Below are positions 20,389 to 23,133 of a stretch of 52,432 nucleotides of DNA, in pieces (the first letter of the stretch is position 1; every line of letters starts with the position of its first letter). Source of the stretch: Escherichia coli (GTDB lineage: Bacteria > Pseudomonadota > Gammaproteobacteria > Enterobacterales > Enterobacteriaceae); assembly GCF_003334315.1 (NCBI RefSeq), contig NZ_QOWR01000029.1; one strand, written 5' to 3'. The notes below the pieces were generated by a model. That model did no database searches, was not told the DNA's origin, and worked only from the letters and a program-made list of their open reading frames with translations. The position numbers were made by a program, and so were the translations under genes.

Positions 20389-21954
20389 TTATGCAGTTTT
20401 GGTGCGAATCAGGTAGTCAAAAGCACTCAGAGAGGCTTTGGCACCTTCGCCAGTGGCGATGATGATCTGCTTGTACGGAACCGTCGTACAGTCACCCGCT
20501 GCGAACACGCCTTTCACGTTGGTTTCGCATTTCGCATCAATGATAATCTCGCCCATGCGGTTACGTTCGACTGCGCCTTCGAGCCAGTTGGTGTTCGGCA
20601 GCAGACCAATCTGGACGAAAATACCGGCCAGTTCGATGTTGTGAATATCGCCGCTGACACGATCTCGATATTCCAGACCAACGACTTTGCTGCCGTCGCC
20701 TTTCACTTCCGTGGTTTGCGCATTCAGAATAATGTCGACGTTTTTCAGGCTGCGCAGTTTGTCCTGCAGAACCTGGTCGGCTTTCATTTCTGGCGCAAAT
20801 TCCAGCAGCGTTACGTGCTCAACGATACCCGCCAGGTCAATTGCCGCTTCCACGCCGGAGTTACCGCCGCCGATAACCGCTACGCGTTTACCTTTAAACA
20901 GCGGGCCGTCGCAGTGCGGGCAGTAGGTCACGCCTTTGGTGCGATACTGATCTTCGCCCGGAACGTTCATGTTGCGCCATTTTGCACCGGTCGCCACGAT
21001 AATGCTGCGTGCTTTCAGTACCGCGCCAGAAGCTGTTTCAATCTGATGCAGACCACCTTCAACTGCTGCTGGGATCAGTTTGCTGGCGCTCTGGCTGTCG
21101 ATCACATCAACGTCGTATTCATCAACGTGAACTTTCAGTGCGCCTGCCAGCTTCTGCCCTTCAGTCTTCGGTACAGAAATGTAGTTTTCGATATCAACGG
21201 TATCGAGGATCTGACCACCAAAACGTTCGCCCATCAGACCGGTACGGATGCCTTTACGTGCGGAGTAAATTGCTGCCGCTGCACCCGCCGGGCCGGAACC
21301 GACGATTAATACGTCATAAGCATCACGCTTGTTCAGCTCTTCTGCCGCACGTTTTTCCGCGCCAGTATCAATTTTGGCAACGATTTCAGTCAACGTCATG
21401 CGGCCCTGACCAAACTCTTTCCCGTTTACGAACACTGCCGGAACGCCCATCACGTTGCGATCGGTGATTTCGTTCTGGAAGGTGCCGCCGTCAATTGCAG
21501 TGTGCTTGATGCGCGGGTTCAGTACGCTCATCAGGTTCAGCGCCTGCACCACGTCCGGGCAGTTGTGGCAAGAGAGCGAGTAATAGGTTTCGAATTCAAA
21601 ATCACCGTCAATATGGCGAATCTGCTCCAGCAGAGACTGCGCTTCTTTCGACGGATGACCACCGGTCCACAGCAACGCCAGTACCAGCGAGGTGAACTCG
21701 TGGCCCAGCGGGGAGCCTGCAAAACGTGGCCCCTGGTTGGAACCTGGGTTGGTGATCAGGAAAGACGGCTTACGCACCGGCAAGCTGTTATCTTCTTTAA
21801 AGGTGACTTTGTCTGACAGTTCTGCGATTTCAGCCAACAGTTCCTTGATTTCTGCCGATTTAGCGCTGTCATCCAGCGTGGCAATTAACTCAACAGGCTT
21901 GGTCAATTTCTCAAGGTAAGCCTTGAGTTGAGTTTTCATATTTGTGTCGAGCAT
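20389..21954 (-). CDS. ahpF: alkyl hydroperoxide reductase subunit F (NADH-dependent peroxiredoxin reductase)
   Basis: 521-aa product beginning [17 protein letters not shown]... with CxxC and FAD/NAD-binding motifs; track ORF trimmed by 10 codons. Confidence 0.95.
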
Positions 21955-22112
21955 GTTTATCTCCTGGGCTTTAAACATCATCATGCAAGCGGCCTCTGCG
22001 GCTACCTGGATGCAGCTTGCATCATGGTGCGGGGAAGAAAATCGGGTGCCGCAGCACCCGAAGAATTAGGTGAATTTCCGAAGTATTTCGCGTCAGAGCA
22101 AGGCGGCTAGCC

Positions 22113-22195
22113 TGTGAATCCCCGGGAGCTTACACAAGTAAGTGACCGGGGTGAGCGGGCGACGCCAACGCCGCTATGGCGTGAAAGACGAAGGA
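22113..22195. repeat. ERIC/IRU (enterobacterial repetitive intergenic consensus) element, probably partial, in the ahpC-ahpF intergenic region
   Basis: gtgaatccccgggagcttacacaagtaagtgaccggggtgagcg matches the ERIC core I remember (GTGAATCCCCAGGAGCTTACATAAGTAAGTGACTGGGGTGAGCG). Extent approximate. Confidence 0.65.
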
Positions 22196-22198
22196 AAT

Positions 22199-22762
22199 TT
22201 AGATTTTACCAACCAGGTCCAGAGACGGAGCCAGAGTTGCTTCACCTTCTTTCCATTTAGCCGGGCAAACTTCACCTGGGTGAGAAGCTACGTACTGTGC
22301 TGCTTTGATTTTACGCAGCAGGTCAGACGCGTCACGGCCAATGCCTTCAGCGGTAACTTCGATTGCCTGGATGATACCCTGCGGGTCAACAACGAAGGTC
22401 GCACGGTCAGCCAGACCTTCATCTTCACGCATGTTGTCGAAGTTACGGGTCAGGGCGCCAGTCGGGTCGCCGATCATCGCATATTTGATTTTAGCGATGG
22501 TTTCAGAGCTGCTGTGCCATGCTTTGTGGGTGAAGTGAGTATCGGTAGATACTGCGTATACGTCTACGCCCAGTTTCTGCAGTTCTTCGTAGTGGTCAGC
22601 AACGTCACCCAGTTCGGTCGGGCATACGAAAGTAAAGTCAGCCGGGTAGAAGAAGAAGACGCTCCAGCGGCCTTCGGTATCTTTTTCGGTGATTTCGATG
22701 AATTCGCCGTTTTTGAATGCCTGGTTTTTAAAAGGTTTAATTTTGGTGTTAATCAAGGACAT
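22199..22762 (-). CDS. ahpC: alkyl hydroperoxide reductase subunit C (2-Cys peroxiredoxin)
   Basis: 187-aa [54 protein letters not shown]... recognised as AhpC. Confidence 0.97.
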
Positions 22763-23133
22763 CTATACTTCCTCCGTGTTTTCGATGAGATGTAAGGTAA
22801 CCAATTTTTGCCGATTCGGCTAATGCGTTTCCATTATCAAATCGATAAGTTTTACCTTACAACCTTCGTAAGACAACTTTGTGAACTTTGCACCGCCAGC
22901 GGCGATAAAAAGTAAAATGGCCCCCTTTCCAGGTGACCGTGTAATCTGAACTACCCTTTGGTATCTTCAGTGCCTGCCTGCAGGCTGAGGTGTTGCCCTT
23001 ACAAATGCAACAACGACATGGATTACAACACCCTCATAAACAAAGGGCAATCACCTGATCTAAGCTCTTACCTATGACAGTGATAGGTTATGCCTTTTAC
23101 TCGACTTTTGCACTGACTGAAAAGGACAAATTA
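22763..23133. promoter_or_regulatory. divergent ahpC / dsbG promoter region (OxyR-regulated in E. coli)
   Basis: Intergenic region between divergent starts; contains an imperfect palindrome cctatgacagtgatagg resembling OxyR half-sites. The regulatory assignment comes from established knowledge of ahpC and dsbG, not from a clear motif match. Confidence 0.4.

Follow-up and report, generated by a model that had tools for sequence, protein, structure and literature searches.

The window, by which is meant the whole 52,432-nucleotide stretch of Escherichia coli DNA that was analysed, carries ahpC and ahpF in tandem on its minus strand, separated by a spacer (21955-22198) whose length of exactly 244 base pairs agrees with that given in a preliminary description of the locus. 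The annotation of strain MG1655, in which ahpC occupies positions 638945-639508 and ahpF positions 639753-641318, gives an equal spacer; the two spacer sequences are 100% identical, and RefSeq places no annotated feature inside the ahpC-ahpF spacer. On a larger scale, positions 454-49906 of the window are collinear with 611.8-661.3 kb of the MG1655 chromosome, a region extending from the fes/ent/fep cluster as far as lipA/ybeF. The alignment contains 235 mismatches and 2 gaps (99.52% identity), and because of that divergence the window is attributed to a strain closely related to K-12 and not to K-12 itself.

Read in the direction of transcription, the UA of the ahpC stop codon is followed by a 127-nucleotide ERIC (IRU) element, 11 further nucleotides, a terminator-like hairpin with UUUUCUUCCCC, and a second hairpin ('hairpin 2'), after which come UUUAAAGCCC, the AGGAG of the ahpF Shine-Dalgarno sequence (21965-21961), 6 nucleotides and the AUG (Table 1). 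The true start of ahpF (MLDTNMK...) lies at 21954 on the minus strand. A 531-residue ahpF reading frame in the mechanically derived list, longer by 10 codons (21955-21984) through upstream in-frame ATGs within hairpin 2, was set aside as an artefact of ORF calling; a small reading frame in the same hairpin (ATG ATG CAA...) was rejected together with those upstream ATGs, their frame and stops being unconserved among genera. The same list makes dsbG 20 codons too long (23074-23133) relative to MG1655, which is likewise an ORF-calling artefact.

Table 1. Features of the ahpC-ahpF region, in window coordinates
Feature	Position	Strand	Basis or remark
ahpF coding sequence, 521 codons and stop	20389-21954	-	ORF list, MG1655 annotation
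ahpF Shine-Dalgarno sequence, AGGAG	21961-21965	-	sequence
Processed 5'-monophosphate RNA ends of K-12 (639732, 639731)	21975, 21976	-	PMC7075262, coordinates converted
Hairpin 2, second inverted repeat (CACCAUGAUGCAAG...CUUGCAUGAUGAUG, 22029-21976; also CACCATGATGCAAG...CTTGCATGATGATG)	21976-22029	-	inverted-repeat search, fold, comparison
Intrinsic-terminator-like hairpin, UCGGGUGC-UGCG-GCACCCGA (22061-22042), then UUUUCUU (22041-22035)	22035-22061	-	scan, fold, covariation
ERIC/IRU element, 127 bp	22073-22199	+ (consensus orientation)	core match, inverted-repeat arms, alignment with other copies, covariation
ERIC terminal inverted repeat, ahpF-proximal, AATTTCC	22073-22079		GGAAAUU in the mRNA, unpaired should the basal stem open
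ERIC central core (ERIC1R/ERIC2 primer region)	22114-22157	+	41/44 identical to consensus
ERIC terminal inverted repeat, ahpC-proximal, GGAAATT	22193-22199		AAUUUCC in the mRNA, right after the UA of the stop codon
ahpC stop codon, TAA	22201-22199	-	ORF list
ahpC coding sequence	22199-22762	-	ORF list, same arrangement annotated in MG1655

The identity of the repeat was established from its core, its ends and its relatives. A 44-nucleotide query, which we take to be the consensus of the ERIC1R and ERIC2 primer sites, matched the spacer with 3 mismatches; none of 100 shuffled sequences gave a match, and the core scan found no second copy elsewhere in the window. Four independent E. coli ERIC copies reproduced the same core consensus. 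The 7-base-pair terminal inverted repeats match perfectly, and the 127 base pairs between their outer ends correspond to the canonical ERIC length. The element occupies the ahpC-proximal 52% of the spacer and overlaps the coding sequence by a single base, its last position (22199) doubling as the final base of that gene's stop codon; the range 21955-22198 that had been given for it is correct for the spacer and too wide for the repeat. The ahpCF messenger bears the reverse complement of the consensus orientation. On one side the element is flanked by TA (the first two bases of the TAA stop) and on the other by TG, and the flanking bases seen in other genera are no clearer. The ERIC match first noted in the spacer thus holds up in the core, in the length and in the terminal repeats, as well as in end-to-end alignment with other copies: the spacer does contain an ERIC of full length, which is a miniature inverted-repeat element and agrees with the family in every defining feature that could be checked, apart from the one-sided TA.

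The ahpCF copy shares with the ERIC/IRU/RU-1 family its length, its imperfectly palindromic form, its terminal repeats and conserved core, its dispersed relatives in each genome, its intergenic position within a transcription unit, and the existence of shorter variants produced by internal deletion; nothing sets it apart, although of the TA duplication only one side can be seen. E. coli copies were reportedly catalogued in 1990-91 (by Sharples and Lloyd in 1990, and by Hulton, Higgins and Sharp in 1991), and the original lists presumably included this ERIC or its Salmonella ortholog. Wilson and Sharp are said to have analysed the evolution of ERICs within species, short variants included, in 2006. 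Among the papers searched, none tied an ERIC to ahpC or ahpF. The element is already known in kind and almost certainly as an instance; as one of a few dozen long-catalogued E. coli copies, its re-identification changes little, and the allele frequencies, the orthology across genera, and the conserved terminator and hairpin 2 described below are to be regarded as useful context rather than as discoveries.

A blastn search with the ERIC located 36,901 places in the set of 5,426 complete E. coli genomes, counting those detectable at blastn sensitivity; the median genome had 7 and none had more than 15. Every other E. coli ERIC locus inspected was less than 83% identical to the ahpCF element, and in genomes without the full ahpCF copy the best match was 60-90% identical. 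The four independent copies that were aligned end to end with the ahpCF ERIC lie between rpsB and tsf, at the 3' end of ybiT, between ybhI and ybhJ, and in an integrative and conjugative element (ICE). This last copy, in E. coli EH01-18-04-A, is situated between mobH and ardC (L087), and 27 ERIC matches were found on plasmids; the ICE and the plasmids may be vehicles that carry ERICs from one genome to another.

Comparison of nine copies over 48 base pairs demonstrated that the palindromic structure of the element is kept up by compensatory changes: 87.3% of the cells were standard pairs and 21 of the 48 pairs showed compensatory substitutions, values reached by none of 500 shuffles, and pairing fell to 35-44% in slid controls. 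In the sense of the messenger, the ERIC RNA has a predicted energy of -46.1 kcal/mol (z -3.25) and can adopt a long hairpin, as the preliminary description had anticipated, whereas the opposite (plus) strand folds at -70.3 kcal/mol (z -9.1), and each of the nine copies folds 7-24 kcal/mol better in the orientation opposite to that of the ahpCF mRNA. This asymmetry in energy was relied upon in preference to the ratio of G-T to A-C appositions in the stem (30:6 in the eight other copies), which is biased because the structure was derived from the plus strand. A comparison of the window element with three further copies (L085, L086 and L088) indicated that the three ERICs overlapping a stop codon (those at ahpC, ybiT and ybhI) are oriented alike with respect to the gene concerned, its mRNA carrying the more weakly folding strand, and that the rpsB-tsf copy, which lies 18 nucleotides past the stop, has the other, more strongly folding orientation.

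The fold asymmetry raises the question of whether the element might be kept for something other than its effect on the messenger, such as a role at the level of DNA (as a cruciform or a binding site for protein) or an antisense RNA read from the plus strand. Besides the more stable plus-strand fold seen in 9 of 9 copies, such a function would be in keeping with one G-U pair that is invariant in the plus-strand orientation, with conservation (92-94.5%, see below) beyond what structure alone would need, and with an end-to-end alignment to the Rfam family V_AS5, a Vibrio antisense RNA, that lies far below threshold. The asymmetry, however, is family-wide and may come from the founder element, the G-T to A-C count carries the bias just described, and a scan revealed no promoter-like plus-strand site near the ERIC; we also know of no documented antisense transcript across it. 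We regard this explanation as very improbable. The Rfam search itself (evalue mode, 21700-22500) returned no match near a gathering score; the weak, sub-threshold matches were V_AS5 at 22.8 bits (gathering 96), aligned over its full length to 22074-22195, and CssrA, a Shigella small RNA, at 19.4 bits (gathering 93) over 22145-22244, both on the plus strand. These two families may themselves be built on ERIC-like repeats.

Across complete E. coli genomes the spacer proved not to be invariant. In a megablast search it matched 5,423 of 5,426 genomes, 1,763 of them over its full length, and 5,419 genomes could be typed to one of three length alleles: (i) a 244-base-pair allele with the full ERIC, in 1763 genomes (32.5%), among them K-12 and strain 042; (ii) a 170-base-pair allele with a 52-nucleotide short ERIC, in 2542 genomes (46.9%), including CFT073 and O111; and (iii) a 128-base-pair allele with no ERIC, in 1114 genomes (20.5%), including O157:H7 and O104:H4. 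In 67% of complete genomes, therefore, the site holds either a 52-nucleotide stub or no ERIC. The short ERIC retains both ends of the element, has lost the central ~74 nucleotides, and is predicted to fold at -19.8 kcal/mol (z -5.5). The 128-base-pair allele contains 14 nucleotides unlike both other alleles, so that it represents neither a clean empty site nor a clean excision; it is assumed to have been derived by deletion, and an origin of the 14 nucleotides from the ends of the ERIC was unconvincing when compared by eye. Counts for the two shorter alleles were obtained with ahpC-anchored probes; a 56-nucleotide junction probe undercounts the short allele (1510 genomes), since SNP variants break the 28-nucleotide megablast word. 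An apparent pair of alleles with query coverage of 1-144 and 1-138 was rejected as a strand-dependent artefact of extension, their sequences being identical.

The distribution of the element beyond E. coli was examined at 21 Enterobacterales loci, found by a scan for AhpC that took one genome per species, and at six Salmonella-type loci found with the S. Typhimurium protein (their AhpC is identical to AHPC_SALTY, but that protein is shared by several species). A full ERIC in the same orientation, directly past the ahpC stop codon, is present in the Salmonella-type loci, Superficieibacter, C. werkmanii, Enterobacter Bisph1 and a metagenome-assembled genome (loci labelled L090, for the Salmonella type, and L018, L008, L007 and L013). 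Internal deletion has also taken place independently elsewhere: short ERICs occur in E. albertii and in a soil metagenome-assembled genome, with different deletion end-points, and Citrobacter FP75 retains only a 15-nucleotide palindrome of the ERIC ends. In Enterobacter asburiae (L010), RIT691 (L012) and Leclercia (L015), the slot that separates the stop codon from the terminator is filled by REP-like, G+C-rich palindromes; it seems to receive repeats of more than one family.

The sequence of the ERIC is also better conserved among genera than its surroundings. Between the Salmonella-type loci and the window, the ERIC is 92.1% identical, the rest of the spacer 66%, and the third codon positions of ahpC and ahpF 78% and 67%, respectively; the corresponding values for Superficieibacter are 94.5%, 74%, 67% and 61%. 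The Citrobacter and Enterobacter ERICs form a second sequence type, ~78% identical to the window ERIC, for which independent insertion at one hot spot is possible. The simplest reading of these sequence comparisons is that a full ERIC already occupied the site before Escherichia and Salmonella split, and that it is being lost repeatedly by deletions inside the palindrome. Its far better conservation relative to neighbouring non-coding DNA argues that, wherever it persists, the element is under real constraint and so has some function. Such slow evolution would fit a constraint acting on the fold and possibly on the sequence too, and the presence of the element at an orthologous site across genera provides a clean example of unexplained constraint on an ERIC sequence.

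The term 'mobile repeat', under which the element had first been described, accords with a spacer that varies among enterobacteria; it is nonetheless misleading for this copy, a full ERIC being found at the same site and in the same orientation in four other genera. A rival explanation is a recent transposition of the ERIC into the spacer within E. coli, with the 128-base-pair allele as the ancestral empty site. The polymorphism for presence and absence inside the species would be expected from such an event, ERIC copies are present in an ICE and on plasmids, and the TA on the stop-codon side is as in the ERIC target described in one review (PMC2229807). The second flank, however, is TG rather than TA, and the 128-base-pair allele displays a 14-nucleotide replacement rather than a clean insertion site. 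The short form is common to E. coli and E. albertii, and the other E. coli loci inspected are too distant (below 83% identity, with best matches of 60-90% where the full copy is absent). Full ERICs of the same type lie at the same site and in the same orientation, 92-94.5% identical, in Salmonella-type loci and in Superficieibacter. Because of that shared position, and of the excess of this identity over the 66-74% of the remaining spacer, the element is better seen as an old resident lost by deletion; the recent-insertion reading is largely refuted, and we consider it scarcely credible.

Downstream of the ERIC, the terminator-like hairpin (-16.6 kcal/mol, z -5.96) has a stem of 8 base pairs, 6 of them G-C, and leads into a U-tract that is interrupted (UUUUCUUCCCC). 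None of the three E. coli alleles lacks it, and it recurs throughout the Enterobacterales loci as a stem of the CGGGUGC/GCACCCG type with a U-tract, and over 20 taxa 93.8% of its cells are paired, with compensatory changes at 5 of its 8 pairs (0 of 500 shuffles). The ~70-nucleotide spacers of Pantoea, Erwinia, Providencia and Brenneria share only this hairpin with the E. coli spacer, of which it is the ancestral core. The interruption of the U-tract suggests partial read-through, and this conserved, predicted intrinsic terminator between ahpC and ahpF is probably leaky. AhpC is far more abundant than AhpF. The arrangement thus resembles known intercistronic attenuators, in that a covarying hairpin and U-tract lie between two genes of which the first has a very abundant product and the second a scarcer one; it differs in that the candidate terminator (22035-22061) is separate from the ERIC. 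Among the entries covered from the supplementary tables of a study of E. coli 3' ends (PMC7815308), none fell in the spacer, and the only 3' end mentioned lay upstream of ahpC.

Hairpin 2 is located just upstream of the ahpF Shine-Dalgarno sequence and is found in Escherichia, Salmonella-type, Citrobacter, Enterobacter, Leclercia and Superficieibacter loci. Across 14 Enterobacteriaceae spacers the arms do not vary and no compensatory change was found, and the ~30-nucleotide loop is variable; the left arm holds a palindrome of its own, ATGCAAG(C/T)TGCAT, that makes alternative pairings possible. It could be a determinant of RNA processing or stability, or a site for a protein. In K-12, mapping of 5' ends by tagRNA-seq placed the starts of ahpCF transcription solely upstream of ahpC, all ends found in the spacer being processed ones; of six processing sites in the unit, two are intercistronic, at 639731 and 639732 of U00096.3 (PMC7075262). 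Those two ends (...GAUGAUG\UUUAAAGCCCAGGAG, with the backslash marking the break) fall at the 3' foot of hairpin 2, 21-22 nucleotides before the ahpF AUG and ~100 nucleotides downstream of the ERIC, and none of the six sites mapped in K-12 lies within the ERIC. Fragments that are short-lived escape the method, according to its authors (PMC7075262). A sigma-70 promoter for ahpF in the spacer was rejected, the promoter scan being negative and no mapped start lying there; the co-transcription of ahpC and ahpF that had been assumed at the outset is thereby borne out.

The preliminary description had further proposed that the transcribed ERIC might modulate the ratio of ahpC to ahpF expression or the stability of the messenger, and a precedent exists in Yersinia. 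According to two reviews (PMC2229807, PMC3184786), the effect there depends on orientation, an RNase E site being exposed when ribosomes prevent folding, and the upstream transcript is destabilised. By analogy, ribosomes at the ahpC stop codon would hold the basal stem open and expose the AU-rich distal repeat (GGAAAUUCA) to RNase E, and cleavage would part ahpC from ahpF, so that 3'-to-5' decay of the ahpC mRNA would lower ahpC relative to ahpF. As is reported for the Yersinia elements of De Gregorio et al. 2005, the ahpCF ERIC is co-transcribed, abuts and in fact overlaps the stop codon (by one base), perhaps in the corresponding orientation, and has a distal repeat that is AU-rich and would be single-stranded under these circumstances. 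The orientation shared by the three stop-overlapping copies, opposite to that of the rpsB-tsf copy, points in the same direction. Unlike the Yersinia case, no K-12 cleavage has been mapped in the ahpCF ERIC, the intercistronic sites being those ~100 nucleotides downstream (PMC7075262, with the proviso on unstable fragments given above). The element is also dispensable in most E. coli, two thirds of genomes being without an intact copy, which argues against a strong effect of this type. Furthermore, an outcome in which the upstream gene is lowered relative to the downstream one, as reported for Yersinia, conflicts with the generally known abundances of AhpC and AhpF. A Yersinia-type mechanism is accordingly judged quite unlikely at this locus.

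The opposite effect, in which the ERIC and terminator hairpins would together block 3' exonucleases, lengthen the life of a monocistronic ahpC mRNA, and so raise ahpC above ahpF, is somewhat easier to accept and still unlikely. REP/BIME palindromes are said to be intercistronic stabilisers of mRNA (by Higgins et al. in 1982 and Newbury et al. in 1987), and the ahpCF ERIC similarly is a repeated palindrome placed immediately past a very highly expressed first gene of an operon; it belongs to another family with another sequence, REP units being ~35 base pairs, and its role as a stabiliser is putative. A hairpin is predicted in the sense RNA of both the full and the short allele, and the sequence is strongly conserved where the ERIC is kept. 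The REP-like palindromes that fill the slot in E. asburiae, RIT691 and Leclercia suggest that any stable palindrome may be tolerated or useful there. Against such a function, the terminator hairpin already supplies a 3' barrier in every allele, and 20.5% of typed genomes, O157:H7 and O104:H4 among them, have no palindrome in the slot.

The account that we consider rather probable is that the full-length ERIC is an old resident of the spacer that is being deleted and has at most a modest effect on the messenger, and that the ratio of ahpC to ahpF arises mainly from the terminator and from processing. The ERIC would be transcribed within the 3' untranslated region of ahpC and the spacer as a long, mismatched hairpin, oriented so that the less stable fold is the one in the mRNA; ribosomes terminating on ahpC would open its basal stem; and its effect would amount at most to a modest modulation of stability at the 3' end of the ahpC mRNA, a limit that is set because of its dispensability. 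The excess of ahpC over ahpF would stem chiefly from two events, namely partial termination at 22035-22061 (hairpin and U-tract) and processing at 21975/21976, beside hairpin 2. A part for the ERIC in the ahpC:ahpF ratio, as originally proposed, is plausible in principle; it is probably not what sets that ratio, for which the terminator-like hairpin appears to be the better candidate.

When the RNA of the entire spacer is folded, both the minimum-free-energy and the centroid structures pair AUUUCCU of the stop-proximal ERIC repeat (22192-22198) with AGGAGAU (21959-21965) of the ahpF Shine-Dalgarno region, rather than with its own partner. This predicted pairing might connect the ERIC with translation of ahpF, or may be an artefact of equilibrium folding over 247 nucleotides.

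A bolder view, which we hold to be distinctly improbable, is that selection maintains the ahpCF ERIC as an RNA element and that it is no mere passenger, given its 92-94.5% identity among E. coli, Salmonella-type and Superficieibacter loci against 66-74% for adjoining non-coding DNA, and that an old polymorphism of three alleles tunes the stoichiometry of AhpC to AhpF, or the life of the ahpC mRNA, according to lineage. If this were true, the tuning would differ between K-12-like strains on the one hand and O157:H7/O104:H4 and CFT073 on the other, and the old polymorphism would be partly common to other species, the stub being shared with E. albertii and the full form with Salmonella. To our knowledge, an ERIC in a 3' untranslated region has so far been shown to affect mRNA stability in Yersinia alone. 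The ahpCF spacer constitutes a natural experiment, with three common alleles placed before ahpF in otherwise near-identical operons, and these alleles would allow a direct test of the effect of an ERIC on mRNA stability in E. coli. At a practical level, ERIC-PCR typing across ahpC-ahpF would be expected to yield strain-dependent bands.
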